64,000 bases of DNA from Vermamoeba vermiformis. Taxonomy: Eukaryota. The stretch is from positions 62,001 to 126,000 of the forward strand of contig JBEWZL010000132.1 in assembly GCA_045837725.1 (NCBI GenBank). The letters are read 5' to 3'. Each line of letters begins with the position of its first letter. The first letter of the stretch is position 1. The notes below the pieces were generated by a model that was not told where the DNA came from, did no database searches, and saw only the letters and a program-made list of their open reading frames with translations. The position numbers and the translations under genes are program-made. Below are positions 11,020 through 48,041 of this stretch, piece after piece.

Positions 11020-14000
11020 ATGGAAGCAGTACCACACTCGTGTTGGTCTCTTCCAACAGAAGTATTGACCAATCTCTTGGCATTAGTACCGTATCGTTCT
11101 GTTATCAATTTTGAAGCCGCCAGTAAAGCACAGCAGCAACAATTTGAACAATATGAACTTTATAAACATCTTTCGTGCAGGTTATTTCATTGGGGATCGA
11201 ATGGTAAATAAGAGCAGCTTTACAGATCTGTTCGAGATCGTTTTATTTGCTCGTTAAACGCACCAAATAAATTTGCAATAATTTTAAAATTAGTAACAGT
11301 ATATTAACGTCTTTTGTTGAAGATGCCAAGCAAGTCGAACAAAGCACAACGGAGAAAATAAATTGGCGAGCTGAGTTCATTATTTCTTCGATCCACCATG
11401 ACACAATACTTAGCAATAGACTAGTGCATGATACAACCCATAATAAGGACGCAGCAAAATTGATGCCAGAAGTTGCGCCGAATCACTTCAACTTCGTTTC
11501 TAATAATGAAGAGGAGGAATTTCATGTAAGCAATTGATTGTGGTGTATCTGAATGATGTATATATTCTATTTATTTACTATTATTTTCAAAGATGTTGTT
11601 TCGTAGCGAAAAGCAACTTTACCCACATCCACTCGGTGATTTTACTGTGGCGTACTACGAAGTCAACTTGATATCACGCAAAGACAATGCTCAGTAAGTG
11701 CTCCATATATATTATATTATCGCACATTAATATCGATTCATATTGCGCGTTTAAGAGATTTTTGTTTCTGGATCGAACTTTGTGGTCCGCTTGCTTAATA
11801 CTAATGTCACTATCATAGGGCGCAATTTGCTGTTGGTGCTGCTCTTGACGGCTACATTGCGTTTGCAGGAGTGGGAAGAAATTCTTTCGCATACACTATT
11901 GACGGCCAAGTGCTACTTGAGCTTGACATCGCGCCTGCAGATCAGCCACCAATAAACGTTGGCGACACTAGTAAGTGTTAGATTCCTTAATATTGATAAG
12001 AAGCATATATAAGAGTACACTAATTTATCATATAACACTAGTCGGCTTTGGCATTGACTTCAAAACAAGAGCCGTGTTCTGGACATTGAACGGTCAACTC
12101 GTGTGCACCAAAACACACAACTACTGGCAGGAACGACTGCTCAATCTCGAAACACTTCACGTATCGGTCAGCTGCGGTCATGGCTTCGAGTTCTCAATCA
12201 ATTTTGGTGCATCTCCGTTCTTGTTCGACATCCGCAAGCATCAACAAAATTCGCAACGAGAGAGTGCAGATCGCTTGAATGACGATAATAGTGCTGATAA
12301 AAACGTATTAAGAGATACGTATTCGATGACAAGTAAGCATATCTAATCAACTATGAGTTCAATGAGTTCGAACTTACCGCAAGATCTAATTCTTATTTAT
12401 ATATTTAGTGCTGCATCATGTCCTTAAATATATCGAAGAAGATACGCTTACAGCCATCGCTGACAAAGACCTCAGATTCGTCTCCCTCTTTGATTTCAAT
12501 CCGCCGAGTGGGGTGTATCATGTAGACATTAATCCGCTTTGGATCTGCTTGCTCTTTCCGAACGATGGGGATAATGGACTTATGGACGTACCGCTTGAAT
12601 TTTTGGCAACAAATTTAGAGCTGTTTCTTGAGTACGTACTGTAACAGATCGAGATCAGACGATAAAAAAAATCTAATACTGATACTGCATTTTGTAGGTG
12701 GAAAGACGATAAAAAAATCCAAATGATGGTCAAAAAACTATTTGATGAGTTTCAGATGGTAAGTAACTTTAAACTACAAGATTCAGAAACCAGATCTGAT
12801 TCCGTTTTCAGCCGTATGAAACAACAGACACATACGAAGATCTCGTTAACCGACTGCATGATAACGCACATGTTTTTTGGTTTATGAGATTTTTCCAGAC
12901 GATCAAGCGATTTGAAGACGACATCCGTCAAGACTTTGTGCAGGTGTGTACTGACATACTACTGCATTACTATTAATTTAAAATATTAAACATACTGTTT
13001 GCAGGATGATATTGCAGCTGGATGGGCACTTGTGGTCACGGCATTCAACACCATCGGTAAGATCCCGTTACAATTTTTAATAATTTTGCTCCAAAAACTG
13101 TAGAATATATTCTATATATTAACATTACCTTCCCAGTTACTAATGAGCAGCTGCCAATCGATCACTATTTGGTTCAAGCCTCACTTTGCTACCTCGATAA
13201 TATTTGTAAAACGGGCTTTCCCAAGCCAATTACTCAAGAGAATGCAAGCACGTTGGTGTCCAAAGCTAGATATCGTATATTGAGGTACGCGCATATTGGT
13301 ATTATCTTAATATTCTTCCTTAAACTAAAAAGAAATGCAACTACAAATGTACTGACTTAAATTCTAGTCTGCGGCTAAAAACCTTGCAGCTGATCATATT
13401 GGATAAAAACAGTAACAAGAAAGAGGATTTTGAGAAGCGTAATGTTAAGATCCAGGTACGAAATAATTGAAAAAAAAATTCTAAGAATTTCTGAAAGTAA
13501 TTAATTTCCGCTACAAAAATAGGAGTTGTATCGCCATCGAGTCGCCAAGGATACGTTAGATTTAACGCTCCAATCAGCACCGATTCCCACGGTGCCACTG
13601 AGAATGAACAGAGAAGAGCAAAAGAAGGCTCGGATCGACCGCCTGCTCACTACTTTATCTTTAATTGAGCACTACGACGTGCAAGATGACTTTACAAAGA
13701 GTCGCGTCATATTAGATGCTATAGGCATGCTTCGTATTCCAGAAGAAAAGGTCACATCCGAATCTGAACTTTTAGCCGAAGCAAAACAACAGATCATTCG
13801 AGAAGTACCCGCAGAAAGACGAATAGAAAGGCTTGAAGATATAAGAAGCTCTGTCGTAAAAGAAGACTACGAGCCTGAGGTCGTCAAGAACTTGGCTCGT
13901 ACGTTTGGTTTGGATGTAGAAGCGGACATTGACCGACTCAGAGAGCAAATCAAAAACAAGCTCGACAAGGATATAAATCAGATTAAGAAGAAACCGAAGC

Positions 14001-14101
14001 AACAGATCTCCTTGAAGACTCAGTTACTGATCGGATCTGGTATCGGTCTTTTACTCGGACTTGGTGCCGCTTTCTTTGTGCATCGACGCAACGCCAAGTA
14101 A
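11020..14101 (+). CDS. F-box + SPRY-like domain protein with C-terminal TM anchor (paralog B)
   Basis: SLPTEVLTNLLALVP, VGFGIDFKTRAVFWTLNG, INFGASPFLFDI, LLIGSGIGLLLGLGAAFF; collinear with paralog A. Confidence 0.75.
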
Positions 14102-14218
14102 TCATCAATTATAGAACACTTAATATACACCTATTGGAACAATAATACTTGTGATAAAAAATTTTTATCATTAAATCATTTACTTTGGCTAATCCAAAAC
14201 TATTCCAAATAAGGAAAT

Positions 14219-17200
14219 CTATTTCTCGACGTACACAATGTCGGTAGCAGAGCGGCCAAAGATCTCAGGGCTGTACATTTCTTCAGCTTTAGCAGGTGGT
14301 ACGATGAACACACCTTCCGTAGTTGCGCGACAGAGGTACTTGTACTGATAGTGACCTTCCCATAATAACGATTGGAAGGCTTCAGCTCGTTCATCGCGCA
14401 AGTTTTGGTGTTCGTACCAGCGATGAGCGTGGTAGACACGTGTCGTGAACGGATTGTAGTTGTTTTGCGCGTTCAAATTGAGCACTGCACGCTGATCTTC
14501 ACCAGTCTCAACACCTAAAATAAGACGTTTTGTTAATACGTGATACTTTAGGATGAATTTGTTGCCTTTTATGGAAATTTCTGACTTACCTTTTAAGGCA
14601 GTGTTGATAATCTCGACACCAGCGGGTAATTTATCAACGAGAGCAATGTGATATCTGCGCGAGGTCGTGGTCATCATGACAGAAACACGCACCTTCTCGC
14701 CCAACTTGAAGTGCCAGTTGCCGTCCTTGTCTTGTGTCACGTGCTTCTTGTCGTCGACACCCTCGTAAGTACGTTCAATCTTGAAGCCGTAGCACGCTGC
14801 TTTCAACTTCAAATCGTCAGGGGCGTAGTTCATCGCGAGACGGTAGTACAATCTACCAGGGCCTTGTTTGGTCAAGATCAAATCAGTGTCGCCAGTCTCG
14901 AACAAGAACTGCATGGGCACGTTGATGATGTTCGTCTCAGTCGTGCGGCCCTTGAAGTTCTGTTCACCGGCAAATAGTTCGCCTAGCCAGACTTGTGCGG
15001 TGAAATTGGGCTCGTCTTTCTCGTAGACTGCAAAGTAGAGATCGAGTGCCACGAGAATCAAGCAGTTTTCTTGCGTGTTGTTCCATTTGCCGGCCTTGCG
15101 GTGGGCAAGCAGACCCTTGGCGAGCTTGGGAATGAGTCCGTTCTTTTGGTCCACGGTCAACAGCGCCTCGAGCAGGACACCATCGACTCTGCGGTCAGAG
15201 TGCAACATGACGTATTGGCCCTCTTGGTCTGAGTACTTGGTGATAAAGTTAGCAGTCTCAGCAGTCTCGTTGACTCTGTTCTGAATGAACTTGAGAATCG
15301 ATGCGATGGCGTCAGTAGTCTTCTTCGATTTGTCAGTGTGCATGGCAACCATCAACCAGCCCAACGAATCTAAGTTCACGCCTTCATTGCCTTGTTTTTC
15401 GTAGATCTTACGAGCTTCTTCAGCCACCTAAAGAACGAACAAATTGTGAGCTACGTTGTTTTTTAAAATAAATCAAACTTACGTTGTCACCGAGCTTTTG
15501 TCTGACGTAGAGGCAGTAAGCCAACAACGAGTACTTGGAGTGCTTGCTCATCCACCAGAAGTGCAAGTCCAAAAACATCTCGAGTGATTTCAAGAACTTG
15601 TGAGCACGCGAGAGAAGAGTCTTGTCGACAGTAACGCCTAATAAAATGCAATTAAGTAAAGATTTTTTCACGGAAAAATGACACGTGTCAACAAGTGTCA
15701 AATTAAACAACTTGAGCTACTTAAAGTACCTTTTTGTTGAGCCTTTGCCAAGCAGTGAGTGACGTGCACGGAAATAAAAGGATCAGGACAGCGCCAGTAA
15801 TCCGCAGTTTTCTTCCAGAAGTAAAATCCTCCCGTGAAGTGCGGCTTGAAGTCATGATCTTCTTGTCGCTTCAACAAGGTCTTGAGCTGCTCTTGGAGGG
15901 CCAACAAGATTGCCATGTTGGACGGCAAGTCTGGAACATTGAACGCTTGCAAGACGTCCTTCAACGAAACAATGCCGAGAATTCTCGAAGCCAGTTGTTC
16001 TGAGCAGTCAAACTCGTACTTCCACAAGTAGAGCACGGCGTCAGTGAGTGACTGCAACACGGTGGAACTCGTTTGCACTTCAAAGCCACCAAACTCTTTG
16101 TACACGTTCTTCGGGGTCTTGACGGGCTGGAAGACGACGGTCTTATCGCTAATGTCGCCGTAAGCTAAGTGATACAACGTTAGTAATGAAGTACAAATGA
16201 GGCTAAGTCACGTACTCGCAAAGGCCTCAGAAGTGGCAGGGGTCCAGACTGGCAATGAAATTTCAGCAGCGTCAGAGAAGTCCTCGCTAGACGCGACAAT
16301 TTGGAATCTAGCCGTGCCCGCGTACTTAGTCTCAACAGGCAAGAAGATAGCCACTCGCTTGGCAGCGCCAATCTTCATTCTGCGCAACACTCGTTAAGAC
16401 TTTTCCTGTAAAAGACGCTTAACTGCACGTACCTGTAACCACCGGTGAAGTTGCCTCTGAATCGTGCATTGGTGCAACGAGCGGCCACGCGCACAACGAG
16501 GTCTTGGTCAGTTTGATTTTGCAAGACCACGCTGCACTCGGCTTTGTCGCCCAAATTAAGGAATCGAGGGAACGATGGACGGACCATAAAAGGCAATTTA
16601 GCAACGACAGATGCATCGCCCAAGCCAAACTTGCGGTCAGTGACTGCCACAGCCCAGACACGGTACTTGGTCAATGAGTCCGGCAGTTTGAACTCGACGG
16701 AGACGTTGCCGTTCTTGTCGGTCACCACTGAAGGTGTGAAGTTTGCAATTGCAGTGAAATTGCTGCGCACTTCGATGGGCGTCGAGGCCTCTTCGACAGG
16801 TGCAGACAACGACCCGCTCAACATGTCCATTGAGGGAGCCATATCTTTTTTCCGTGCGTTAGCCATTGGAGCCATTGGAGGAGCTAAGCTCTGTTGCATC
16901 TGTGCCATCATTGGAGCAGGAGCAGCGGATTTAGCGGGCATTGCCGACGCCATTCGCATCATTGGACGTGGAGGAGCACCACCAGGGGCAGGGGGACCTC
17001 CTCCTCCCATTCCAGACGAAGAATCGCTAGCAACAGGCAATTCTGGCTCTGGAGGCTTTGGTGCGTTTTCTGCAAACTTTTGCAAGTCCTCAGAGCTACA
17101 ACCACCATGAATAATCAATGTATGAAAGAATTCTAATAGCTACGTACCTAATAAGCAAGACGGCGCTTCTCAAGTAAGAAAAGCCGGTGCCTGTTTGTCG

Positions 17201-20200
17201 GTGAGGATTGAACAAGGACAGAGGATTGCTCAACGAATAGCCAGTCAATGCCAAGACACTCTCGTCGACCACAATCACGCAAACTTCAGCGTTTTCCTGC
17301 GGCTCGTTCTTGGCATTAGCTACGTGCACGTTGACCACGGCTTGTGAGCCAGGCTTGTACGATGCTTGGCTGGTCGTAACATCGACCTTCAACTCGTCAG
17401 ACTTGTTGACAATGTTGATGTTGGCGAGGCCTTTAGCGAAGCAGGGGCGCGGAGGAGCGGTCAAATCTAGCACACCCGAGTTCAAGGCACGAGGCTTGCA
17501 ACCCATGAGATCGACTTGAATCTGCACGTTAGGCTGCCAGTCTTCTTTGATCGGGAACTTGACTGTCACAGAGTCCTCGACAAGTTTGAAGCGTTCAGTG
17601 TGCACGACACCTTCACACAACAGCGTTAACAAGCCTTCAGCGGGCTTGAACGGAGATTGAACGAGCAACTCTCCCGTAGTCTCTCCATCGAATGGCGAGT
17701 ATGTCTGTTTGTCGGGGATGATGATAGCCTCTTCTTGGGTCACTTTAGTGATCTTAGGCGTTGGCGTAGCCTTTGCACCAGACACGTTGAAGGTGACCTT
17801 GGTCTCATTGCGCAGCTCTATTGTTATGATTAGAATCAAGTCCGATAGTCACGTGCAGTGTCTCTTACTTCGACCGTCAGCTGTGATGAATTCAAAAGTA
17901 TACTGGCCTCCGTCTTTAGGGAAGTACTCGTAGACAAGTGGTTCGCTCTTCGAGACCAACTTGACGATCTTGCTGCTGCTCTTTTCAACTTCGCGAGTCA
18001 AACCTTGTTCGTCTGAAAACACTTGTTAATCACCATTTCTTGATAGTCCTTTGCACTTACCCTTCTCGTCTTGAACCCACTTGCGAGTCTGTTTGATCCA
18101 GAAAGGCACGCCTTCCTTAGCCTTGCCATCGATGTCGGTGACAATAACGTCCATAGGGAACAGATCGTGAGGCTTGCCGTAGGCTCGCTTGACATTGACA
18201 CCAAGGTAGTACTCCGAAGGGTGTAACAGGAAGCTGTGAGACCGTTAGAAAATTGAATTGCAGGTCAATGTCGTAATACCTTGTCGAAGTTTCACGGGTT
18301 TGGTAGTTAAGATCGGTGATGGCAGCAATAGCTTTCAGGGTCTTGGGTGCCTTCAAATTACCCGCGTAAACGATCTTCACTTCGTGTTCACCGTTCACAT
18401 CGGTCTTGCCATTCAATTCATTGCCTTCTTCGTCGGACTCTTCGTCGGATTCTTCGTGATCAAGGAGTGACGGGCGCAATAGAGGTCCACCTTTAATCAT
18501 CGGACGAGGAGGTGGAGGAAGTCCAAAGCTTGGTGTGACTGATCGAATACCAAATATTTGGCCACGAATGTCATCAAAAGTGAATGGTGTGAAGGTTGGA
18601 CGATCCATCCACCAGGGCTTGACGTCACCAAAAGAGAACTTGGACCAACCAGGCGGCGAGTAGAAAGCGTCGCTGTCTTGCAAAGTCCACTTGACCTTGG
18701 CGTCAGACAATCCTCCACCTGCAAAGTAGGTCGCCTTGGCCTTGGCAACAGCAAATCCTCCTTCCTTGCTTGCAATGTGATTGGAGATTGGAACGTAGCT
18801 CGAGCTCACTTCGTACTCGGGTCTGCGGAACTCTTCGACTTTGAACGTGTGGGTGTATGTAATAGAAGTGCCCACGGTAGTAAAAATCACTGACGCAGTG
18901 CCCAAGTTCATGTTGTCAGGCAAATTCAACTTGAGGTCAAAGGCACCAAACTTGTTGAATTCGAGATCTCCCTTGGAGATTTCCGCGCCACGTGGATCAC
19001 GGAAGACGTACGTCATCTTGCCGCTGCCATAGGTAGGCATGATTTTTCTTGTTTCGGATCGTTTCAAGTGTCGCAAGTAGCCCTTGATGTGAACCTCTTC
19101 TTTGGGTCTGTACAACTTTCTGTCATCAAACACGAACCAGTTGTTGCTCTCAAAGCCAGTCTTTGTGTAGTTAACGGGAGTAAATGCCACGTCATTGCCC
19201 TTCGAGCACATGACAATGCCCTTCGCTGCGCCATTGAACTTGGGGAACAAGATGATACCATCGTCATTTGTCTTGCCTGTAAACCGACGTTAAATCACGT
19301 GTCAAAAAAAGCCACTAGCTCGTACCTGAGCAATTGTTTGGAGCGCTAATTTGCACACCACTGGCAGGCTTGCCGTCTTCCAGCATCGAGGCCCACACGA
19401 GCAACTCTCCGCTGCCCTGTGAGAAGATAGTGTCCACGCACATGCGCGTAGATTGTATCCACGAGTACAACTTGGGGTGGTAGTCTTCGTACTTGTCATA
19501 GTAGCTGCTGTGGAAAACTCGCCAAGCGGCCTCAGTAGGCTCCACTCTGACAATCAACTGACCCAAGTTTTCATTAGGGAACTGCAAGTGAGGTCTCAAG
19601 TCAATCATCAATTGCTTGGGGACACCTGGTTCAACGTCTGTCTTGATAATGGTCTCGTGGACAACCTTTCCAAATTTGGAAACATGCGGACGGCGATTGT
19701 TGAACTCCGCAGTGGCAGAGAAGTACTCGGTGGGAGCGACTTGGTACACTTTGACGTGAAGCTCGTGATAGCCGACAACAATTGGGGTCAAAGTCGGGTG
19801 AGTCTTAGGATCAAGCACGACCAAGTTGGACGGGCCAGCTAATTACAAACCGTTAGACATTGCACGAAAATATAGGAGATTGATTTAGACTTACTAAGTG
19901 AGTCGTAACCGGGGCCAACCTTCACGTCGTACGTGTTAGCACCAGTCAGCTTTTGCTCGTAGACGTCGCACAAGGCACGATCAATGGTGACTGTGTACTT
20001 CTTGCTCGGGTCACTATCATTCTCGATAACGAGACACGATTGTTGTCTCATGAGGCCATAAGAACTGCCAAAGATCCCGACACTAGCAGTGTTAGCGGAG
20101 TTATTTTCAATTCTGAAAACAGCTTTCTTCAACGGAGGTGTGATCTTGACCATGCTCTCTTTGAAAGTGCCCATATCAATTGGATTCGTGAAGTAAATGT

Positions 20201-22467
20201 GCCAAGTAGCACGAGGATGGTAAGACGAAGGTCTGTAGGGCTGGTCAACACTAAACAATGCCATGGATTAGTAAGGCTGAAACAAAGTTGAATTATTAGT
20301 ACGTACCCGAACGGAGGATAAGTGGAGAATGAAGCACTTTGGACGGTGGTAGATTTCAACGGGCCTTCTAAGGACGGGACTGACGGACCAACATTGATGT
20401 TGTAAGTCGTGTTAGGCTTCAAATCTGTCTTGAATCTGAAGCCGAAGAACGTCGAGGCATTGATCTCGTTAGTGTCGTATCTGCGCGCAGCCAATGCGGC
20501 AAGTGTTTCTTCGGTGGAAAGCAATTGCAACTCCGGGGCGTTAGAAACCCTAGAGCTTGTTAGCGCGTTGAAATAAATCAAAATGAAAGACGTACTTGAC
20601 GACTTTGATAACCTCAGCCGGATTGATCCGTTGATCGAATCTCAAGACGATTGTCGGGCCCAAGCAATCGAGTCGCTGGCTGTAGCTGCTTGGAGAATGC
20701 GTCCACATGTTGTCAGAGAAGTTCGAGATGTAATGCACGTTCTTCAAAATCGGTGTGTTGGTGGAAAACTTCATGACAAAGTCTTTGGCCAGAACACCGT
20801 TCACCATCGACTTGGTGCCAGCAGGGATCTTAATGGAATAATCCGTGGAGAACGGGAATCGGCCCTCAGCCTCGAACTGCAATATAGTAGTGCCCTTCCA
20901 GACCCAACGACCGGCAATACCTTGAGGCTCCAATGTAGCAGGCACGGGGACTGAGGTAAGTTAGAACTAGATAGAATAGCTTATGCTGCACTTACTCTCT
21001 TTCAAGTCAGCGATGCTAGCAACAGGAACCATAGGCTGGTTGAATGTGATTGAAGCCACAGGCACGGGAACATTGAGAGATCCCTTCGGCGAGTGTCGTA
21101 AGATTTGAAGCTCGCCACCAGTCTCTTCTTTGTTGAGCTTCTTCGCCTCTTCCACGTCGATCACAACCTCGGGGCGAACTAGCACGTGTCAATATAATTC
21201 GTGAATAAGACTCTGTTGTCACGTACCTTCAGGTGGAGGAGGGAACGGTTGGTTGATTCGCTCGCCTGTCTTAGGAGCCTTCAACGAAGTTTCTATTGTC
21301 GGGTTAGTTTTCTAAAGTTCAGTCTTGTGGTAATGAAGACGCACCTCTCACAGCGAAGTTCTTCTCGTCACCCTCTGCGCTTTGAATAGGAGCAGCACGG
21401 TTCAATAACTTCTCCAAGGACTCTGCGTTAAGAGGTTCCATCGGCTCGACAGGTTGGTCAGTCTCGGGCTGCTCTTGTGCGTCTTGATCTTCCTCGGCAT
21501 CTGCCTCAATGTTCGCTGCCTCGACAGCGTCAATCTTTGTCAACTTGGTAGTGAAGGGCACGAGCTCAGTATCTAGCTTAAAAGTGAGTCCGAGTGGCGA
21601 ATGCATCACGTGAGTTGACGTTACCTGGCAAGTCATCAGGCTCTTCAGCACTAGAATCTTCGTCTTCCTCATCGATGCGAGGTGACTTAGCCTCGTCCTC
21701 GACAATGGCATAAGGAGACTTGGTGACATCTGCACAAAGTGTCAATCAATGTCACATCTGTCAGTTTACCTACCCTTGGTATTCCAGTTTGCCGATACTT
21801 TTAAGTTCTGCTTTTCTTGAATAGTATTATTTTTGTTTTCGTTCTCTTCCGTAGGCTTTATTTGACCTTCGCCGTACTGGATTTTGAGTTGGAGCGAACC
21901 TTGAACTGAATCTTTCTTGTTTGGGCGAGAAGATAACGGAAACCAGTCTTCAATTGGCGATTTGCTAAGCAAATCTTTGTTGATTTTAATTGTAACTTGA
22001 CCCTGGAAACGGTCAGATTCGAGAATCCGCAACGAGATCATAATATCTTACCAAAAACTTGTCAGCAAGCACTTTCTGCTTATGCCACAAGCTAATCTGG
22101 ACACCAGAAAAATCCGACGCATCACTAAAACGATTCAGTAAGCACCAAAAATTGAAATCGATTTTTCATGACGCTTACAAGCTTAGTTTTTCGTTCCAAC
22201 TCGGTGTTTGCGTCTTCTTAACAGGCTCTAAAAATTATACAATGGTTAATCAAAAAAATCTATTGCTGCTAAAGGAGTTTTACTTGTCGTGCTTGGCTTG
22301 CCGATCGCCTTGCCGCCAGCATCGAGCACTGCAACTACGACGTAGGCATCGTATTTGGACTTAAGATCCTTTCCAGCGACCGCTAAATTAAGAATGAGTC
22401 TCTTCTTCGGGATGTGGTAAATATCTTACGCACCTGTTACTTGGAGTTGCGTAGCTCCTTTCTCCAT
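14219..22467 (-). CDS. Bacterial-type alpha-2-macroglobulin with N-terminal C2 domain, multi-exon
   Basis: C2 motifs (PSWNE, ADKFLGQV, WFPL, GSLQLKIQY); Ig-like ITFNQPMV; MG2 FDDRKLYRPKEEVHIKGY; VEEFRRPEYEV; VVDESVLALTGY; VRSNF..LPDSLTKYRV; PRFLNLGD; thioester CSEQ (15995-16006); WNNTQEN; PPAKAEEMYSPEIFGRS. Confidence 0.9.
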
Positions 22468-22651
22468 TTGGTGCTGAGTATTAATTAAATAAAATAAATG
22501 CACGAAACAGCAACAATTGTTTTTGTAGGGTTTGGTTTGGGTTTCTAGAAAGCATTACATTTTTACCTACGAATTGCTTAATTTGGATGTGTAACAGAAT
22601 AAACAAAGAATGATTGGAACTGTGGGACTAACAGCTGCATTTACGCTAACT

Positions 22652-23964
22652 TTACAAGTTAGAGTAGTTGTTTTGACCAGGCAACCACTTGGCGCGGAAG
22701 TAGTACAGAGCGAATCCGACGAGTCCGACACCGGCGACCACAGCGACGATGATGCCAAAGATAGCACCACCCGAGAGAGGAGTGGAGGCGGGAACGAGAG
22801 AATCACCGCTAGGAGTAACTCTTCTGGCTGTGTGACGCGAAAATTAGAAACGTCATCGCGAACGTTCTGGAAGTAATTTAACGTACAGCGAACAGTAACA
22901 ACGTAGGACTCAGAGGCAGCGCGGTTGTCGTGCAACTTGTTAACAGGATTGATCATGATCCAAACAGTTTCAGCATGAGCCATCGCAGTGAACTCGAAGA
23001 AGAAGCCTGAAAGGGCGCAATATTTTAATCAAACGGAGCCGAATTTCTGATTACTGTAGCCATATACTTACTGTTAACCTTGGATAGATCAAAGCTATGG
23101 CGAGTCGGCGCAGAAAGGGAAGTAGGGCAGTCAGTACCGGATGTAACTGTAATGGAGGAAATAGTCTCATTGAGGTTAGTAAGAGGTGCCTCGATGATGA
23201 CGTCAAAATCTTCTGTTTGGTCAGGTTGGAATCCAGCAATGGTGAGCTTGATGAAACGAGCGCTGATCATTTCGCAAACCAGATCGGGAGTGTAGACTTT
23301 TCGGCAGACAGGAAAAGTCAGCATGCCAATGCCGAATGAAGGAAGTAAAAGAGAAGGAACGGTTTCTAATATTATTAGCAAATATATCAAAAATTTTCAG
23401 TAACCTACCAACACGCAGGTATTGACCCCATCTGCCATCATTACCATTCGTTTCAGCATGATAGTGCACGCGGAAGGTTTCGTCCTTGGCTAAAGTGAGC
23501 ATGCAGGGATCTGTAATATATTAGTAGAGTTTTTGAAACGCGAAGTTTTCGATCTTTCGTACCAGCTACTTCTAAGTGGAATCCGTTCAACACAGCTGGT
23601 TGACCACCAGGAGAACGGTACGTAAGGTCATGAGTCTATAATTTTATTAGAATTTTTGGCATAATTAGAAAATTAATACCTTATTGTAGTGCACATTTTT
23701 GGATGTGACTATATCCGCCTTTGAAACATTGATGTACGTTGCGCCGATAGAAGTTACGTTCCAGCCATAGATAGCAAGACCGGGGGGCGCGATTCCTTGC
23801 CATTGACTCTCAATAGTATTTTTGAACGGACGTACTGCTGAGAAGGTTTCAGTGTAGTAGGTCTCGCTGGCGTTGTCAATCTCATTGTAGTCTGTTCTCG
23901 CGTCGATGACGTAAGCGGAGGCTATTAAAGCCAAAAAAAGCGTGCACAACTTTTGAGGGTGCAT
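22652..23964 (-). CDS. Type I membrane glycoprotein with C-terminal YxxL sorting motif
   Basis: Signal peptide MHPQKLCTLFLALIASA; splicing intron 22885-22829 gives TM GAIFGIIVAVVAGVGLVGFALYYF and tail RAKWLPGQNNYSNL*. Confidence 0.7.
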
Positions 23965-24210: not shown

Positions 24211-26898
24211 TTAATTTACAGGCGCTATGCTGATAGCAAATGGGTATCCGGAATCCAAAGGCATTTCTCCAACGTACAGGTACCCACTTGACGACGTATT
24301 ATATTGGCGACCATGACGATCAGATATACTTCCTATTAAGAAGCTCAAGATTTTGCGTCCGTTATAGTCGGTCACGGTTAGAACATTGCCTCGATCTGCT
24401 ACCACAGCGTTAACTGGATCTGCCAAACGGATGTCTTTCAGGCGCTGATAAACAGTGCCTTGACTACCGCTCGTCATCACAGCGGCAACTTCACGGGAGC
24501 CTCGACAAACCACGTAGAAGTGGTTGTTCAGTGGATCTGAGAGTTCGCTTGAATTGCCACGTGTAGGTAACAGTTGCTGAGGAAGCTTTTGAGCAATTCG
24601 GGCAGGCACAATGGCAGTAGGGACCTCGCATACGTCAAATGAACCCATGATCGTAACCTCGTTGTTGGCATCATTAGCATTCCGTGACATGAGAGAGGAC
24701 GTGTCGATGATGACCACTTTGCCATTGTAAAGAGCAACGTGCGCTTTGAATCGATCGCTGGAAAAGCTGCTGATGGTATTTCCCGCAAAGACAGCTGTAG
24801 GAGCGTCGAGGTCAAATGTAGTCACAACGCGAGGTGGTGGAACTGCTCCAACGGCTCGCTTCTTCTTTTGACGGAGTACACTGTATTCGTCCTCTGCGTG
24901 CCTATCTTCTTTAGCAAATACGGACCACAGCGCTTTAACTGAGTCCAAGATGTCACTTAAGCCAAGTCTAGACGCATCTGAAGCCATTGAATCAGACGGA
25001 GTGTAGCCCGCGTTCGGATCGGGTGACGAGAAGTCAAACGACCCTGGCCAAGCACCGCTAGCACGTTCTTCAACCGTTGTATTGTAGTTTATCAGCCAAG
25101 CCTCACGGAATGATTGCAGTACCGGCGACAAATCAACGATGCAAGCTTTGTTCTCGAACTTGCTCGCTACAATTGCGTAGCCCTTGGTAGCGACAACTGC
25201 ACTCCAAGCTCCGTTGTATAAGCTTTGGCGAACGTTAATACTCGTAAAATCAAGTTGTCCGAGCGTAAGGTCGTTAGTGTCGCTTGGTCCAGACCACCTA
25301 AAAGAGGTTAGATCCGTGCGTGGCGCGTAACTGAAAACTCTTACCGATGATTGCTGGCTGCAGATACTGATGTTGGCGCTGCGATGGGCAGATCGACGTA
25401 TCCAAGTAAGACCAGATCAGAGAACGAGCCTTGATTAGGCATGCCCAAGTAAGGTGTAGTGTAAAGTGGCAGATACTTGGCTTCAATCGCGACAACGGCT
25501 AACTTGCCCGTCAATGTCTGCGTGTCCCAGAGCGTCACAAGGGCGAGCTCATTGCCACTAGTGACGGCAATATCTGTAGGAATAAGATAGGATGGGAATA
25601 CGACGCCTGGATATGGTCTGTCTCCGGTGCCACGCGAGCTCTGCAAACTGTTCACGCCTAACAGCCCCGTGCGATAGATCGTCAGTGCTTCGTTCTGTAC
25701 TTGCCCGTAGTTTCTAACTGAAGCTACAGGGAACTGTGCTTTGCCTTGATATTCAGATACTCGCACTGTTGGATCGGGATGTGGCGAACCGCTGGTTTGA
25801 TCCAGACGAGGTGACAGGGCAAAGACATTGGAGTAGTAAGCAAATGTTTGAATGCGATCGATTCCAGGATCTCCTGGCAGCGTAGGAATGTAGCCTACTT
25901 GTCCAACGGATGACCAAGAGTCGTCATCCAAACCACATCCCTGACGACCCAATTCGTAGGGACTGTACTTATTCTTGTATGAAGTGGGGCATGTAAATGT
26001 ACCAGGTTGGTCGTTGGTTGGACGATCTTCTTGGGCCATGGGGTGAAGCTCATCGAAACTTGGACCAAATCTCTTCGAGTGCGCACTTGGTGACCAAGCG
26101 GACCAATAGAGCTCGTAGGCAGTGCGATTTACTCTTCCATCCGGGTAAAGCACGGTATCAGGCACGTAATCTTGATTGAACACCTCAGGTGCACGAATAA
26201 TGACGCGGAGGATGTTGCTCGGATACTGCAGTGCATCCGCTGCGTGCGTGGCACGGGCTTTGAAGGTGTAGGCGCCTGTGCAACGTCAAAATCATCAGTA
26301 AAGCGGCGTAATTTAAGTTCACCATTGTGATTCTTGACAATTGCTTTGTAAAAAAGAATCTAAATTTGCAAAATAAGACAATGCTTCTAAATTAAATGAA
26401 ATAATTCACAAACTAGATTTTCCGTGATCCGCGAATCAAAATCTTTACTGAGTTACTGGGCAGTTATTAAATTGTTACGTAGCGTTGATTAATCATAAAT
26501 TATGCAAAAAATCAATTAATATTAACTCGCTTAGAGTATAGATCTGCAATGCCATCCTTACCTTCATCAACCACAGTTACTTTAGCCGTTTTACTAGACA
26601 TTGAGCTATTGTCGGGTTGATTTGAACTCCAATCGCCATCTGTTAGCCAACCATCATAGCTCATAGTGCCATTAGGATGCATAACCTCTATTGCGTGTGT
26701 AGTGAGATCTGCGCCAGCGTCTGTAACGATGGCGTGAAAAGTAATCTCCGTGCCTGCTTCTACAACTACATCGTAGTATTTTCCATTAACTGAGATGCTG
26801 TGGATAGGCTTGGTGTGCAGCATCTGGCTGGTGATCCCTGACACGAGGGCAAGATGAACCACGAGTACCAGCACGAATTGCTTAAATGCGACCACCAT
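24211..26898 (-). CDS. Secreted protein with probable beta-propeller, three exons
   Basis: Signal peptide MVVAFKQFVLVLVVHLALVSG; repeated PTxIAV/PTSV/PTAIV/PVNAV blade-like motifs; introns about 26561-26277 and 25343-25298. Confidence 0.7.
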
Positions 26899-31222: not shown

Positions 31223-34031
31223 ATGTGTCTCGGAGGTCGGATTAGAGGCAGATGTTGTGAAGGCAACGCAAAAGGCACGAGTGTCATCGTACCTTTAATC
31301 GGTGCCTCTTCAAGCGTCAAAATTTTGGATTTTACAGCTCAAGTTGAATTAAAACAACGCTATGAAAATCAGGTAAGTCTTGAATTCCGATCTGAACGTT
31401 GATAAAATTCAATTAATTAATTATAATTCAGAACGATTTTCCTCTTGAGGCAGTTTACGAGTTTCCATTGCCCGAGTCAGCAGCTGTAACCTCGTTCATT
31501 ATTGAAATTGATGGCAAAACGATCCACAGCAAGATCTTAGAGAAAGAAACTGCTAGAGAAAAGTACGACGATGCTATTGCTAGTGGCCATGGTAAGCATA
31601 CTTAGATCTTTATAAAAAAATACTGACTTTGGCTAGGCGCTTATTTAATGGAAGAAAACAGATCTGGAGCCTTCACCACATCGATTGGCAATCTTCCTCC
31701 AGGAAAAGAAGTATTAATTACTATTGTTTACGTTCAAGAGCTCGAATTTAAAGATGGTCAATTGCAATTCACCATGCCGACCACCGAATTTGCGCCTAAC
31801 GGGCAAGGAGAGACCGCACAATTTACGCGGTCTAAGTCCAATGAATACGAGAAGGTAGTGCCATATGGAGTTAGGGTAAGTCTTATTGATTTTCATGCAC
31901 GTCATGTTGCGGATCAGATCCGTCTTTTGACCCCTTTAACACGATCAACTAACATGATTTTTCAGATTAATGCTGAAGTACTAGCCTCTTCGCGCTTAGT
32001 ATCGGTTATATCACCCAGTCATAATACAACTACAGTACAGTCGGGCTATCAAGGGCATTACAAGGCCTTGGCCAGCATCGCTCAAACTGACGGATCCCCT
32101 CTGACCGAAGATTGGGTGCTGCAAGTTGGATTGGCCCAACGTCACGCTCCTGTTGCTAAAGTGCAAAAATACAACGATTCTTATGTGACCATGGTAGCTT
32201 TGCACCCTGAAATGGACGAAGAACAAGTTAACTCCGAAATCATTTTCGTTGTTGACAGATCTGGCTCGATGGCTGGCAGCAAAATGAATTCAGGTACGAA
32301 TATTACGATATATATTCATATTTTACTGATATTATTAATATCAGTACGCCAAACTTTGGAATTCTTTTTAAGATCCTTGCCCGAAGGAACCATGTTCAAC
32401 ATTGTTAGTAAGTAGTGCAAAGAATGACCGAAAGACATTTTATTAATTTTATTATGCTCGTAGGCTTCGGTGATAAGTATACCAAGCTGTTCCCTAAATC
32501 AGTCGAGTACAACAAGAACAATTTTGACAAGGCATTGACACTCGTTCGTGGCATGAACGCGGACATGGGCGGCACTGAAATTGACAAGCCAATGCTCGCT
32601 ATATTCAACGAATCTGCAATTGAAGGCGTGCCCCGTCAAGTGTTCTTATTGACGGACGGAGAAGTCTCCAACAGGGCCAAGTGCATTGAGATCTGCAAAC
32701 AACACGCCAAGAAGACACGTGTTTTTACATTTGGCATCGGAAGTGGCGCCGACAAGGCCCTGGTGAAGGGCATGGCTGAAGCAGCGAATGGCAACTTTGA
32801 GTTCATTAAGGACAACGAGAATATGGACGAGAAAGTGCTGCGTCAGCTCGGACGTGCGTTGAAGCCTGCCTTTGTGGACTTGTCGCTCGATTGGGGCAAG
32901 GACTTGACACCTGTCATTACACAGACACCTCACCACTGTCCTCCTCTCTTCAGTGGCGGTACTATTGTCTTCTACGGATTCGCTCCGAAAGGCATTAGTG
33001 GCACGCACAACGTCACTTTGCATGCCAAGACATCAACGGGCCCTTTCTCAACCACAGTCGCTGTGAACTTTGATCAAGCAATTGAGGGCGATGCCATCGT
33101 CAAACTTGCTGCTCGATCGTTGATTCGTGACTTGCAAGACAGCCGCAGTTACATGCACAACGACCAGTGTCAACTGTTGCCCAAGTACACCGCTCAAAAT
33201 GTCACGGACACTATCATCAAGACCTCGCTCGAACACCAAGGTACGTAACATTACTAGCCTTTAAATTATAGTATTCTAATACTGTTTTTGTTAGTGATGT
33301 CGAAACACACGTCATTTTTGGCCGTTGAAAAGCGAAAAGAGGCCACGCAAGGCACCATGAAGACGTACGACTCTCAGCGCAGAGGATCACTCGTCAACAG
33401 TCAGAGCTACAGCGATAGTGACAACGATGACCTCTTCGACGACGATGAAGATGCGTCGTCTGGATCTCAAAGTGAAGATGAAATGGACTTTGAAGAAGAA
33501 GAGGCAGAAGGTGCCATGGATATTGACATTTTGATGGATTTTGATGAAAGAGAAGTCGTCAATTCATCAGCCAGCTTCTCGTCTGGAATTAAACGGAAGA
33601 GAAACGCACCTATAATGATGATAGAAGAAGAAATGGACAATAAGAAAAATTCACTTTCGATGGCACGTGATACAAGCAGCGGTTCAGTGAACAGCAATAA
33701 TAACAACAGCAACGATACCAATACTGTCCGTAATGTGATGAAACAACAAGATTTCAGCGGATCATTTTCACTGAACGCGTTGCAAATGGTCGTGCCGTCG
33801 GTCAAGTCGGATCTGATCGCCAAATTCGTCAAAGATCATTCACTGAAAAACGAAGCAGCGGTCATCACGCTATTCGTTGCCGTTGTTTTCGAGTTAAAAT
33901 TCGCAGCTCAAAAGAGCGTTTGGGACTTGGTCATGAAGAAGGCTAAGCAATGGGCCAAGAAACAACTTGGTGTAGCGGATCTGACCGGCATTGAGACTGA
34001 AGCCAAGAACGTGTTGCAGCCTTTATTGTAA
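31223..34031 (+). CDS. VIT + von Willebrand factor A domain protein (VWA5A-like)
   Basis: LEAVYEFPLP, FTTSIGNLPPG, FVVDRSGSM (MIDAS), ADMGGTEI, VFLLTDGEV, RVFTFGIG, SKHTSFLAVE. Confidence 0.9.
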
Positions 34032-34216: not shown

Positions 34217-34639
34217 TTAATTCATAATGAAATTGTAAAACTCTCTGCTGGGTTTGACGTTGTGAACTTGGATGTAGTGTTCGTATCCTTCAGGCCAGTG
34301 AATGACATCGCCATTTGCTGCGACCATTTTATATTCAGAAGCACCGTTGTTTTTTACAACGAAATTATAACCCGGCTCCGGTGCGCATCCGTTCTTTCCA
34401 ACTAATCTGCAGTGGGAGTAACCTCTGTATGAAATCACTTCAGCCTTTTCTTGTTTAGCTCTTAATTTTGTCAAGAATTCTTCCTTTCCAGGCCAAGGAG
34501 TGTCACTTCCAACTGGAAAAGGGAACGGAGAAGCCTTGTCTTCTTCGGATGAGCCTGACCAATAACCTTCGTACTTCTTACCTCCGTCAATGCTGATATT
34601 TTCGCGATCAAAAGTAAGTGATGATTGAAATACACCCAT
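34217..34639 (-). CDS. Small intronless conserved hypothetical protein
   Basis: EGYW, YRGYSHCR, NGASEY and WPEGYEHYIQVHNVKPS motifs; ATG at 34639. Confidence 0.7.
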   Translation of the reverse strand: MGVFQSSLTFDRENISIDGGKKYEGYWSGSSEEDKASPFPFPVGSDTPWPGKEEFLTKLRAKQEKAEVISYRGYSHCRLVGKNGCAPEPGYNFVVKNNGASEYKMVAANGDVIHWPEGYEHYIQVHNVKPSREFYNFIMN

Positions 34640-35132
34640 CGTTTGTTGTTGTTCTTTGCTCTGTGATTTGAAAATGATTCGAAAAATTGATTGGATTCGC
34701 TTAAATAGTTGGCAACTGGACCACCAGTCACATGCCTGGTCACTTCCTATAAACATCTATTTCAATTAATACCATTCTCACGGTTGCACATTTACCTACA
34801 ATTCAAACAAATTAAATATAATGCCCGACAACAACGGGGTAGTTTCCACCAGCGGCTTTTTTTCGGACAAGTTGAACGAGGCCAACACCACCAATGCTAC
34901 GGCCCACGCACCGGTTATCAAGAATGATTGCCATACGTACCTGAAGTATCTCTAGTATGCATTTTCGTTGCAAAGTAGAAGCGTTCGTTGGTCAACATCT
35001 GCTTCGACAACCAAATTCTAATTTTCATTAACTAGTCATTTATCCACGGAATTCGTACCAGTAAAAATTATTATGTGTTAAATTTAATATTATTATACGA
35101 ATAAGTATGACTGTTTATTTGCAGCAAAGACT

Positions 35133-36593
35133 TTAAAATTTGTAAACATTCACTGAATACAATCGAGTCATGCGCTGCTTCAACGACTCTGCATCAAACT
35201 CTAGTTTAGGCAACGGGCCACTGAGAGAGAGCGTGCGCAATGAGGTCAAAAGTGTCAAAGTGACACCTGTCAAAGTGTCACTTGGCCAGGAGAGGTGCAG
35301 ACACCCTAAATTAGTCAAACTGGTCAGCCGAAGAATTGTACTGTCTGTCACATTGATGCAACTGCTGAGGCCGATCTCTTTGAGTGCTGTCATATGTGAA
35401 ATTTCTTCCAAGAATTTTTCACTGAATAGCCAACGACAATTCAACTTTGTCCAAGGCAAGTGTCTAATGCTAATACTTTCATCAAAGGATAAATAATTAT
35501 AACTCAATTCTTCGAGTACTGTCAACTTTTCAACGTGTAAAATGTTTTTGGGCTGATCTGGGACTCTAATTTTCAAACTTCGTAGATTGGGTAAGCTAGT
35601 AATGCTTGCAAATAGGTCTTCATGACCCTCAAACATTTGTAATCGTGTCAATGCTGTGAATTCTCGGAGAATTTCATAGCTGTTCGGAGTTATACGATCT
35701 AGTTCGAGTACTTGCAGACTACTGCTTAATTGGGTAATGTTATTCAAGTCATGACGGCCTATCACATCCAATGCGGTAAATTTCTTCGAATTTATCAAAT
35801 TTAAAGCTTCATGCCATTGATCGTCATTGTTTTGTTGAGAAAATCTAAAATATTCCAGATTTGTCAGTGCCGTCAAAAACTGCAGAGCAGCAGGGCCGTC
35901 AATACAACCCTTGATTTGCATACTTAATATTCTTAATTTTGTTAATGTCGCTAATGACTGGCTATCGACCGTTGAGCATTCCAAAAACAAGTTTGTTAAG
36001 TTTTTAAATGCCGAGCTATCAATGTCATCTTTCCAAAGCAAATTTAAAGACTCTAAATTAGGCAAGTGAGGGAGTGGTCCGTTAAAGTTGAAGTTGCCCA
36101 AATCTAACTTTTTTAGGTTTGTAAATCTGGTAAAGTAACTTGGATCCAAGGTAGAATTTGGAGTATATAATGACAAATACGTGGTATTAGGAAAGTGGTG
36201 CATAAGTTCGTCAGGTACGTCCACAATCTCTTTCAAATTCGTCAAATTTGTCAACGGATGCAGCTGCTCGATTGGTAGTGGTTTGCGCTTGATTGACAAC
36301 GGCGGCTGAAGGCCATTTAATTTTGTTAATTGAGTCAATTGTCCTAATTCTTCGTGGATTTTTGTCGTTATAGTGAACATTGGGTAAATAAACTCGAGCC
36401 CGATCGGAAACGAATATTTTTTGAGTCTTTTGAGGAGCAGATCCAGCTGTTGATCGGTCGTATAATAGACTGCAAAGTCATCGTATTGTATTATATTGAA
36501 CCATCGCGAGTTTGCAAGCCTCATCCTGCGACGTGAACTGACATCCAGATACGAGCCGATTATAGGCAATAATTCAGACGGTAGAGAGTCCAT
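35133..36593 (-). CDS. F-box + leucine-rich repeat protein (intronless)
   Basis: MDSLPSELLPIIGSYL F-box; many LTxLxxLxL repeats. Confidence 0.88.
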   Translation of the reverse strand: MDSLPSELLPIIGSYLDVSSRRRMRLANSRWFNIIQYDDFAVYYTTDQQLDLLLKRLKKYSFPIGLEFIYPMFTITTKIHEELGQLTQLTKLNGLQPPLSIKRKPLPIEQLHPLTNLTNLKEIVDVPDELMHHFPNTTYLSLYTPNSTLDPSYFTRFTNLKKLDLGNFNFNGPLPHLPNLESLNLLWKDDIDSSAFKNLTNLFLECSTVDSQSLATLTKLRILSMQIKGCIDGPAALQFLTALTNLEYFRFSQQNNDDQWHEALNLINSKKFTALDVIGRHDLNNITQLSSSLQVLELDRITPNSYEILREFTALTRLQMFEGHEDLFASITSLPNLRSLKIRVPDQPKNILHVEKLTVLEELSYNYLSFDESISIRHLPWTKLNCRWLFSEKFLEEISHMTALKEIGLSSCINVTDSTILRLTSLTNLGCLHLSWPSDTLTGVTLTLLTSLRTLSLSGPLPKLEFDAESLKQRMTRLYSVNVYKF

Positions 36594-37270
36594 TAGAATC
36601 TATTAAAATACAAATTAATTTAAGAAATACCTAATTAATTATTATAATTAACTGTTGGTCAGTAATTATTCATAAATAATAGTATTATGCTGCAGATATT
36701 TTTGTTTTGAATCGAATCTTAATGGGCAAATTCGTTCTGGATTCGTGTAATTAATGCCGCAGTATTATTTATCAACTATATTAGGTGTTAATTACCTCTA
36801 TGTGTTTCAGGTCCGGTGATGTTCACTGGTTGGGACATCAAATAAAAACAAACCTCAGTGTATCCCGCTGTATTGATCCCAGCACCAACAACGGCCCAAA
36901 TATATATAAAAATAAACAATAAGAAGGGAATCCAAATGCTATAACACTAAGGAAGCATGTAGATGCAGCCACGCAAACAAGTACGGAAAGAGAGGGCGCT
37001 GGATAATTAATGGTCAGCTAATGTATAGAAATATAAATTGTAACAACGCGGAGGCTGCAGTACTCACGGTAAGCGTTTTTAAATGGTAGCATGTAATTTG
37101 TTTTTCGGATGTCGGTACAATGTAGCGCAAAATTTCATTTAAATTTAAAATAATATAGTACAAGTACAAGTATCAATAACGGCAAAATTAGAATCTAACA
37201 GACAAAGCGGATCGACCAAAAAATTGGCTGTTGCATCTTTTTCTTCGTTACGTGCTCTTAAATATGAAGC

Positions 37271-46900: not shown

Positions 46901-48041
46901 TTAAGTATGTCGATCGGTATTTTATCGCTACCTGGTGTTTTATGGTTTGCCATTTTAGCGATTGTCTCTCGAATTTCTCGCAGTGATATCTTACGCATTA
47001 GGTCAAGGTTATATTCGATGTGAATGTCTTTTTCGAGCCATACAGGAGTATCGGTTCTTGGGGGGGTAGACGACGTGAGTGTTGCTTCCCAAAATGAGCG
47101 CACTTGGTTGCGGATGCCTTCTTTGTCTGTTATTGTTACGTTGTTTTGTTTGATGAATGGGATTGTCTTGTTGCTTGTTAGAGTTTCGAAGATTAGTCCG
47201 ATATATGTTTTGAAATTTGTGTCTCGTAGGCTAAGTCGTCGTTCAACTCTTGAATTGATATCATTTGTTTTCATTTGTTTTATCCTCTTATTATATTTTT
47301 TAACCTCTTCGCGTTTTCTTTCTTTGATTTCCTCTGCAGACGCATTCGTGTTGATGTTGCATTTCCCGAGTATCTTTTTTAGTTTCTTTTCTCTCGATGG
47401 CGATGCTAGCATATATATTTTGTGTTTAAGTCGGAGAGCTTTCAGTATTTGATGTATATTTCGTTTGATGTTGTTTAGTTCTGCATCTTGTTTGTACGGT
47501 TCTCGTTTGTTGTTAGATTTGAACTTTTGGAATATTAATTCGTGCCATTCGTTAAGTTTTTCGTTTATTCTGGACATTGGTTCGGTGCCTGTCAAGTGGA
47601 ATCCGCTGCTTTCGTAGAGGGTTTGTAGCTTATTTGGCGTTGATTTTTTATCAAGGTTGTGGGTATCGATTTTTTCTCTCAGTTCTTGGCTTGTCGCGCT
47701 ATCTTTGACTGTTGTAAAGCTGTATTCGAGTATGATTGCGCGGTGATCGGAATGTATTCTGTCTTGTTTCCATATATCGCAGTTGATAATACGTCCTTTT
47801 TTGTTGGTAATGAAATAGTCTATCCTGGATCGTGTTCGATAGATCTCTGGTGACGTTTCGTCTTTGTTTTCTCTTTCGAACGTGAATCCTTTCCGTAATG
47901 GGTAACAATATCGGAAGCAATCGGCGAGAGCGCGTATATCAAAGTTGTTCGTTACCGTTTCGCAGTGGTTTGCATGTTTAGAGGTTTTATTGAATTTCGG
48001 ATCTGATTTTTTAAGGCGGATATTTAGGTCGCCTCCTATTA
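43951..48041 (-). CDS. Retrotransposon polyprotein, 3' part: C-half of APE endonuclease, RT, RNase H, CCHC
   Basis: GGDLN, SRIDY, SDH; KTPGSD, YRPISLL, DFSKAYDSV, GVKQGDGLSP, YADD (46237-46248), YKYLG; TDGS/ELEA/FTDC/HVPSH/GNEAADQLAK; CVHC..H..C; frame open from 48041 to stop. Confidence 0.95.

Follow-up and report, generated by a model that had tools for sequence, protein, structure and literature searches.

Thioester proteins are known as defence molecules, extracellular in animals and periplasmic in bacteria. This report concerns a gene of Vermamoeba vermiformis that lies on the minus strand at 14219..22467 of a 64,000-nucleotide stretch of DNA (assembly GCA_045837725.1, contig JBEWZL010000132.1, positions 62,001 to 126,000), the whole of which is referred to below as the window. 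The gene joins an N-terminal C2 domain to a bacterial-type alpha-2-macroglobulin (A2M) within one transcript and one protein, and its product appears to belong to a group of eukaryotic macroglobulins that have parted with the export signal and kept the thioester.

Described relatives of the window's protein

Type I bacterial A2Ms are portrayed as periplasmic, membrane-anchored monomers with an exposed bait, the cleavage of which allows a CxEQ thioester, buried until then, to form a covalent bond with the protease (PMC5764988). The window's protein shares with E. coli YfhM and the Salmonella A2M the order of the macroglobulin (MG) domains, a bait-region domain, a CxEQ motif within the thioester domain and a C-terminal bMG10 domain. 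Both of these relatives are membrane-tethered traps of the monomer type, and the window's protein may be one as well. It is nevertheless a distant relation of YfhM (the best single-exon phmmer match has an E value of 0.003), is some 700 residues longer, and carries extra N-terminal immunoglobulin (Ig)-like Big_5 domains. It also differs in having no lipoprotein signal and no periplasm to reside in, with a C2 domain standing where the bacterial protein has its lipid anchor. E. coli yfhM adjoins pbpC, which encodes PBP1c; no PBP or transglycosylase family was found in the 20 long open reading frames (ORFs) of the window that were scanned, a scan that genes made of short exons could escape.

The closest bacterial relatives are A2Ms of about 2000 residues with the same Big_5-bearing domain set, from Acidobacteriota, Armatimonadota, Myxococcota, Chloroflexota and other groups, mostly represented by metagenome-assembled genomes (MAGs). 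These proteins are 35-37% identical to the window's over roughly 2100 aligned residues and 47-56% identical over the last exon. Unlike the window's gene, theirs have no introns and encode N-terminal signal or lipoprotein sequences (P0123, P0163, P0149 and P0127; P0123, like YfhM, has an N-terminus of the lipoprotein type), and a C2 domain was found in none of the five bacterial homologues scanned.

A search of 8.1 million open papers and 0.36 million preprints brought up no description of a C2-A2M fusion or of a clade of eukaryotic A2Ms without signal sequences. The nearest precedent in the literature is the Dictyostelium COG2373 fusion CPRas2, in which a Ras-like GTPase is inserted in a COG2373/A2M-like body (PMC2430557). 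CPRas2 is a eukaryotic intracellular protein that combines a bacterial COG2373/A2M-like body with a eukaryotic signalling domain (PMC2430557). The resemblance drawn here is one of described architecture, and the added domain is a circularly permuted Ras GTPase within the body rather than an N-terminal C2.

Animal thioester-containing proteins (TEPs), such as A2M, CD109, C3 and the insect TEPs, have in common with the window's protein the MG fold, the thioester and the logic of a bait or activation site. They differ from it in the context of the thioester (GCGEQ in animals, CSEQ in the window), in having a receptor-binding domain where the window has bMG10, and in having a signal peptide.

A C2 domain in the same protein as the macroglobulin

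The first 131 residues of the model make up the C2 domain (21865..22467, minus strand), which is spread over exons 1-5 (22467-22434, 22382-22284, 22227-22179, 22124-22052 and 22002-21774). All four introns that split it are seen as spliced joints in RNA contigs. Because the C2 exons of the window are too short to score singly, the assignment was made by way of an ortholog; the one match of exon 5 to solved structures by phmmer was a weak one, to the end of the RasGAP C2 (E 0.43). The ortholog, P0288, is a 473-residue protein of another species from a public metagenome project that was found by a search with exon 5. It is collinear with residues 1-469 of the model (261 of 480 positions identical, or 54%; E 4e-138), begins with the same Met-Glu-Lys, and contains in one uninterrupted protein a Pfam C2 domain (residues 6-110, 2.2e-17, 63.6 bits where the cut-off is 22) and a Big_5 domain (1.3e-05). 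Its closest solved structures are the C2 domains of NEDD4L (8.5e-07) and NEDD4 (1.4e-06), followed by those of Slp4, protein kinase C (PKC-alpha), PLC-zeta, RIM and synaptotagmin, with 22 chains in all at E<=0.01. Identity between the window and P0288 is 63% over the C2 (85 of 135 columns), 60% over the start of the A2M part and 34% over the linker between them, so the C2 is as conserved as the macroglobulin and far more so than the linker, which indicates that it is under constraint.

The linker (residues 132-243, 21433..21864, minus strand) is acidic, disordered and fast-evolving, matches no Pfam family, and comprises the end of exon 5, exon 6 and the first part of exon 7. Exon 7 (21345..21572, minus strand; residues 197-272) is the fusion exon, in which the linker finishes and homology to bacterial A2Ms sets in (from residue 244, nucleotide 21432). 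Blastp alignments with four full-length homologues begin at residues 244-252 of the model, all within this exon, so the switch to bacterial homology does not fall at a splice site. One 606-nt RNA contig links exons 1-6. Another extends from exon 5 across exon 6 to include the first 11 bases of exon 7 (a loose end at 21625 in contig set X5). The original prediction had read a C2 domain at the N-terminus and had allowed that its exons might belong to a separate transcript; these contigs, the mid-exon switch and the ortholog together place the C2 and the A2M in a single transcript and protein.

The same arrangement is found in a third species. In a metagenomic locus (L001, genomic DNA) ten of the exons recur in unchanged order and with unchanged boundaries, exon by exon 58-86% identical to P0288 and 42-85% identical to the window. 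L001 is the only one of the 80 loci returned for P0288 in which the C2 is covered; a second (L002) begins at residue 296, and the remaining 78 are bacterial A2M genes that match P0288 from residue 160 or later. The fusion is conserved in at least two further divergent relatives. A fragment from a public-run assembly (P0289, 201 residues) holds the last strands of a C2 of similar kind, with an acidic stretch after them; over 58 residues its identity to the window is 53%, and it matches Pfam C2 at 7e-05 (23.4 bits). No A2M part is present on that record, and it may represent a further lineage with the fusion.

That the gene is an artefact, made from the C2 exons of a neighbouring gene, from bacterial contamination or from misassembly, is barely credible. 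No single RNA record runs across the whole gene, and nothing else was found that would favour such an explanation. Set against it are spliceosomal introns verified in RNA, a fusion point inside one exon, the recurrence of the same fusion in P0288 and L001, and neighbours that are themselves eukaryotic (fibrillarin, an F-box/leucine-rich-repeat (LRR) gene and a reverse-transcriptase element). We are close to certain that this is a real, expressed eukaryotic gene with a C2-A2M fusion.

Gene model and RNA support

The coding region specifies about 2357 residues in 23 exons, which are separated by 22 introns, all of them GT..AG and 40-92 nt long. The start ATG occupies 22467-22465 and the stop codon TAG 14221-14219, both on the minus strand, which are exactly the limits that had been proposed for an intron-rich gene from the sequence alone. 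The nearest in-frame stop upstream of the ATG (22557-22555) is 30 codons away with no ATG between, and RNA coverage gives out within 22229-22555, with no depth at all beyond 22556. Given from high to low coordinates on the minus strand, introns 1-8 lie at 22433-22383, 22283-22228, 22178-22125, 22051-22003, 21773-21730, 21624-21573, 21344-21293 and 21226-21179; introns 9-16 at 20995-20951, 20595-20556, 20306-20251, 19894-19839, 19325-19277, 18279-18234, 18060-18013 and 17868-17818; and introns 17-22 at 17147-17096, 16432-16380, 16215-16165, 15729-15638, 15482-15428 and 14589-14515.

The model was built from RNA contig joints combined with reading-frame continuity; two automatic models, one greedy and one by dynamic programming, had several junctions wrong and were set aside for the RNA-guided one. 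RNA was mapped on 13400-23200 from two contig sets (X3 and X5, both from one sample of a close relative that is 95-99% identical to the window) and from two raw-read runs (X17 and X19). The contigs support 17 of the 22 introns, 15 by spliced joints among those listed and two by loose ends that match the start of the next exon exactly. Their joints read CT..AC on the plus strand, which is GT..AG on the minus strand. The other five introns (20995-20951, 20595-20556, 20306-20251, 17147-17096 and 16432-16380) were placed by frame continuity, and for one of them, 20595-20556, an alternative end at 20550 is conceivable, which would alter the protein by two codons.

Two of the introns were easily misread. 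The last, 14589-14515, is free of stops and in frame, which is why the final "exon" looks like an ORF of 402 residues whose homologues align in two stretches; it is spliced out in the RNA contigs of both X3 and X5. A joint at 15635/15728 that seems non-canonical is the canonical intron 15729-15638 together with one base difference in the relative. Near the 3' end, six reads of X19 fit 14381-14495 at 95-99% identity, after which come 14 letters with no counterpart either in the adjoining sequence of the window or in the next exon. These reads may derive from a paralog or a second allele, or may reflect another way of splicing.

The macroglobulin body

A Pfam scan of 15 exon ORFs found a family at E<=0.01 in eight of them, four above the curated cut-off, and the domains follow the bacterial, YfhM-like order that had been proposed for the gene. 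Downstream of the fusion point, residues 244-2356 of the model form a single blastp alignment with a bacterial homologue (P0004). The N-terminal part of the body (residues 244-846, 19326..21432, minus strand, as are all the features that follow) is an Ig-like/MG region that is collinear with bacterial homologues and with P0288; three weak Big_5 matches and a weak bMG3 match there round out the bacterial set. Exon 14 (18280..19276) encodes an MG2 domain (48.5 bits, 1.2e-12) and an acidic, proline-rich insert, and is bounded downstream by an intron seen as an RNA joint (18279-18234) and upstream by one seen as a matching loose end (19325-19277). Exon 17 (17148..17817) holds the bait-region domain A2M_BRD (60.2 bits, 3.6e-16), followed by the A2M family domain PF00207 at 16483..16740 (65.8 bits, 3.2e-18) and, at the C-terminus, by bMG10 at 14264..14788 (110.5 bits, 8.6e-32), which is interrupted by intron 14589-14515.

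Between the BRD and A2M domains, the position expected of a bait, lies a low-complexity stretch of 104 residues (1508-1611, 16786..17095) that consists of 18% Ala, 18% Pro, 12% Ser and 12% Met, and which we regard as the putative bait. Its Met/Ala/Pro-rich character had been picked out in the original prediction. The conserved anchors that flank it are 150 residues apart in the window, 102-118 apart in six homologues and 156 apart in P0225; in the other six of the 13 homologues at least one of the two anchors was not found. The stretch is about 35-45 residues longer in the window than in the six homologues measured.

The thioester motif, CSEQ, is intact, as had been claimed. It lies in the thioester domain at 15995..16006 (residues 1837-1840, the Cys being residue 1837) and is aligned with CxEQ in 71 of 81 rows; nine rows are without the Cys, and one further row, a fragment, is gapped there. 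Every one of the 14 rows of the eukaryote clade described below keeps the CxEQ. As judged from its domains and motifs, the body is that of a complete bacterial-type A2M of Type I, with its thioester motif in place.

This pattern of retention bears on the notion that the protein is a scaffold or regulator with no trapping activity, the A2M body serving as a binding platform for endogenous partners. There is a precedent of sorts in CPRas2, where a bacterial-type body has been reused together with a signalling domain and for which a scaffold role has been left open (PMC2430557), and no function is known for any eukaryotic member. That said, retention of the CxEQ in all 14 eukaryotic rows, though nine of the 81 aligned rows have no Cys, argues for selection on the thioester, and the bait stretch has been kept and even lengthened. 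We consider a scaffold of this kind improbable.

Relationship to bacterial A2Ms and to animal thioester proteins

A profile of the family matched E. coli YfhM at 1.4e-67 and the Salmonella A2M at 8.9e-61, as against 4.4e-15 for CD109, 1.8e-11 for human A2M and about 1e-4 for C3. The preference for the bacterial proteins amounts to more than 50 orders of magnitude, and the animal matches are confined to the MG2 region. By phmmer the A2M exon matched YfhM (0.003) and the Salmonella A2M within a range of 0.003-0.006 and no animal chain at E<=1. The last exon and the thioester exon had no match in the PDB. Cobra venom factor, which had come up for exon 14, was discarded as insignificant (0.25).

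The last exon found 1880 proteins of 705-2010 residues at E<=0.001. The best 120 of these are 47-51% identical to it, and the named ones among that 120 come from bacterial MAGs (Pyrinomonadaceae, Blastocatellia, Armatimonadetes, Anaerolineae, Myxococcota and others) or from bdelloid rotifers; no animal TEP is present among them. An exhaustive search of representatives with the same exon returned 6014 matches, headed by two short metagenome fragments (96% and 65% identical) and continuing with proteins of about 2000 residues at 45-56%. By these comparisons the protein is a bacterial-type A2M and not an animal TEP, and its true family is the longer, Big_5-bearing bacterial type. A grouping with the eukaryotic TEPs, the outcome that would have told against the earlier reading, was not what emerged.

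These affinities also bear on what the thioester might do. Complement C3 and insect TEP1 attach to target surfaces through their thioesters, and the window's protein could by analogy be a covalent tagging factor, which after proteolytic activation would attach itself to an invading bacterium, a parasite vacuole or a damaged organelle, with the C2 guiding it to membranes. The parts required are the same ones (a conserved CxEQ, a bait-like activation site and a membrane-binding domain), and the chemistry is common to tagging and trapping. The nearest characterised relatives, however, YfhM and the Salmonella A2M, are protease traps, the similarity to C3 is marginal, and no anaphylatoxin, C345C or receptor-binding domain was found in the Pfam scan of the exon ORFs. 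A tagging role seems to us distinctly unlikely, although less so than that of a scaffold.

A eukaryotic clade without export signals

The window's protein has no hydrophobic run at its N-terminus, where the C2 begins at about residue 6, and no stretch of 19 residues anywhere in the model reaches transmembrane-like values (maximum 1.55). Over the first 60 residues, the maximum hydrophobicity is 0.13-1.07 in 10 other proteins of the eukaryote clade versus 1.83-2.76 in four bacterial ones; the bacterial homologue P0004 also shows no N-terminal hydrophobic stretch and may be a truncated call. The absence of a signal peptide, which had been pointed out for this one gene, thus extends to its eukaryotic relatives.

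The protein falls in a clade of 13 rows that has a support of 100 both in FastTree (79 C-terminal regions) and in a quick IQ-TREE analysis (50 rows). Named members come from Willaertia magna, Naegleria lovaniensis, Percolomonas cosmopolitus, Cavostelium apophysatum and the bdelloid rotifers Rotaria and Adineta. The others are ORFs of about 2000-2350 residues on contigs of roughly mRNA length (P0129, P0133, P0170 and P0225) and a fragment of 301 residues (P0122). The annotations of all these go no further than hypothetical protein or A2M-domain protein. A C2 is absent from each of the 10 other members scanned, which begin with short acidic extensions. We therefore recognise, from sequence comparison, a eukaryote-only clade of bacterial-type A2Ms that lack signals and keep the CxEQ, a clade that is new here. 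Loss of the signal with retention of the thioester appears to be a trait of the whole clade, the C2 having been added only in the lineage of the window. The rotifer copies (P0003, P0018, P0041 and P0045) group with P0225 (2345 residues) inside the protist clade with a support of 99, so the source of the gene in rotifers may have been a protist and not a bacterium.

The protein could be extracellular or lumenal all the same, leaving the cell by an unconventional route or by means of an undetected upstream signal exon, with the C2 acting on the outer leaflet or on a target cell as in perforin-like proteins. Its bacterial and animal relatives all act outside the cytoplasm, and the absence of a signal was judged by hydrophobicity only. 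An upstream exon is opposed by the limit of RNA depth and by the in-frame stop 30 codons before the ATG (see above), and by the ortholog, which begins with the same Met-Glu-Lys. The clade speaks against export as well, none of its 10 other scanned members having a hydrophobic N-terminus, and the acidic, Ser/Asp/Glu-rich linker and insert would be typical of intracellular proteins. We rate an extracellular location as improbable, to much the same degree as the scaffold or a shade more so.

Origin and direction of transfer

The original prediction also described the gene as an old horizontal acquisition. Its age stands: the gene is old in the eukaryotic lineage, because it has 22 introns and shares its exon boundaries with L001, though identity between the exons is no more than 42-85%. 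The same cannot be said of the direction of transfer. A quick tree, rooted with E. coli YfhM, which forms a very long branch, had the eukaryote clade nested within bacteria when left free. Constraining the 36 bacterial rows to a single clade gave a tree that was 88.3 log-likelihood (lnL) units better than the free one (p-AU 0.942), so the data do not show eukaryotes nested in bacteria, and the nesting has been withdrawn as evidence of bacterial origin. A bacterial origin would still be the more economical reading, since the superfamily is broadly bacterial and its eukaryotic distribution patchy. Named members of the nearest bacterial clusters are MAGs of Myxococcales and of Anaerolineae/Gloeobacterales, along with one labelled simply as an unclassified "bacterium", and no donor could be named from these clusters.

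A proposed membrane-tethered trap in the cytosol

The favoured mechanism starts from location. Since a signal peptide is missing and the C2 begins at residue 6, the protein would stay in the cytosol, tethered by the C2 to the cytosolic side of a membrane; this attachment would probably depend on basic residues that bind acidic lipids rather than on calcium. A protease that cut the long, exposed bait would release the buried Cys-Gln thioester, which would then link covalently to the protease as the macroglobulin closed around it, as in the bacterial Type I A2Ms. The C2 would in this way do the work of the lipoprotein anchor, and the trap would be tethered to a membrane as it is in bacteria, but in another compartment.

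The part assigned to calcium follows from the C2 itself. Members of the NEDD4 family are the best solved match to the C2 of the ortholog and differ from it in the length of loop 1 and at the acidic positions of loop 3. By comparison with NEDD4L, loop 1 is four residues shorter, and loop 3 has His and Gln where NEDD4L has Asp and Asn, the loop-3 motif WHKQK being the same in the window and in P0288. At what we take to be the calcium-ligand positions of C2 loops, most of the acidic residues are absent from the window's C2. Binding is accordingly predicted to be independent of calcium, perhaps by way of basic residues. Since few of the ligand positions are kept, calcium-triggered recruitment to damaged phagosomes, which had been suggested for this protein, is left without support.

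Several points weigh against the trap or against parts of the case for it. No functional, localisation or protein-level data were found for this gene or for any member of the clade, and the thioester would need to survive millimolar concentrations of cytosolic thiols. The export signal was scored as absent from a hydrophobicity scan and from the C2 at residue 6, and unconventional secretion is possible. None of the window's own three C2 exon pieces, too short singly, has a Pfam match at E<=1, and the family profile was built from 13 full-length homologues among which the window's protein was not included. RNA coverage has gaps at 20267-20920 and 16670-16996, so no single record leads from the C2 to the thioester. 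The raw-read runs that carry the window's species label contribute little, and nothing on the C2 or the rest of the 5' part: X17 and X19 have eight and 21 reads at 95-99% identity, all at the 3' end except for a trace of X19 in the bin 18632-18958, which reflects either low expression in that material or reads that come from a relative. Taking all of this together, we put the membrane-tethered cytosolic trap at somewhat short of an even chance, and regard the whole favoured statement, with the real gene, the fusion and the trap mechanism taken as one, as evenly poised.

If the trap is real, this gene and the signal-less clade suggest that the same covalent device works inside the protist cytoplasm, here with a dedicated membrane-targeting domain. 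Thioester-based immunity would then extend to a new compartment and to unicellular eukaryotes, the gene would clearly exemplify the substitution of one domain for another after inter-domain gene movement, and the protein would be a natural model for a covalent protease sensor or trap that works in the cytosol. The main interest lies in the clade, a set of signal-less, thioester-keeping macroglobulins that spans several eukaryotic groups. On a broader and more speculative view, a thioester-protein defence built on a bacterial-type macroglobulin, comparable to complement and A2M but at work in the cytosol, would exist in several groups of unicellular eukaryotes and in the bdelloid rotifers. In the lineage of the window a calcium-independent C2 would station it on membranes in advance, where it would covalently trap the proteases of intracellular bacteria or viruses, or those from ruptured lysosomes or phagosomes, as they entered the cytosol. 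We think this wider view unlikely as it stands, though a better prospect than tagging.

Surroundings of the gene

The G+C content is 46-51% over the gene and about 38-43% in most of the remaining window. The window as a whole is eukaryotic in content, with a fibrillarin exon, the F-box/LRR gene, a gene with VIT and VWA domains and a reverse-transcriptase/RNase H element; neither tRNAs nor Rfam families were found in it.

On one side, a convergent neighbour on the plus strand (13523-14101) ends 118 bases from the A2M stop. It is a coiled-coil-like ORF of 192 residues with a hydrophobic C-terminal tail, and it resembles a tail-anchored protein. On the other, just upstream of the A2M gene, two long ORFs with overlapping ends (401 and 314 residues; 24211-26285, minus strand) match no Pfam family. 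Three consecutive long ORFs on the plus strand at 31627-34031, 9 kb from the A2M gene, hold the end of a VIT domain and a VWA domain (VWA_3, 6e-14), a pairing known from the inter-alpha-trypsin-inhibitor heavy chains and the vault protein PARP4. Beyond them, on the minus strand, are a match to DUF7919 (34217-34756, 9.9e-08) and an ORF of 488 residues with an F-box-like match and leucine-rich repeats (35133-36599).

Two long frames on the minus strand occupy strongly skewed stretches farther along. The second (54503-58021) is a stop-free frame of 1172 residues, rich in Ile, Asn and Lys and with no Pfam family, which may be a second mobile element or low-complexity sequence. The first (43951-48078), in a strongly AT-skewed stretch, is an open frame of 1375 residues with reverse transcriptase (1.2e-37) and RNase H (2e-12) domains; it is a retroelement, to all appearance intact in this frame.

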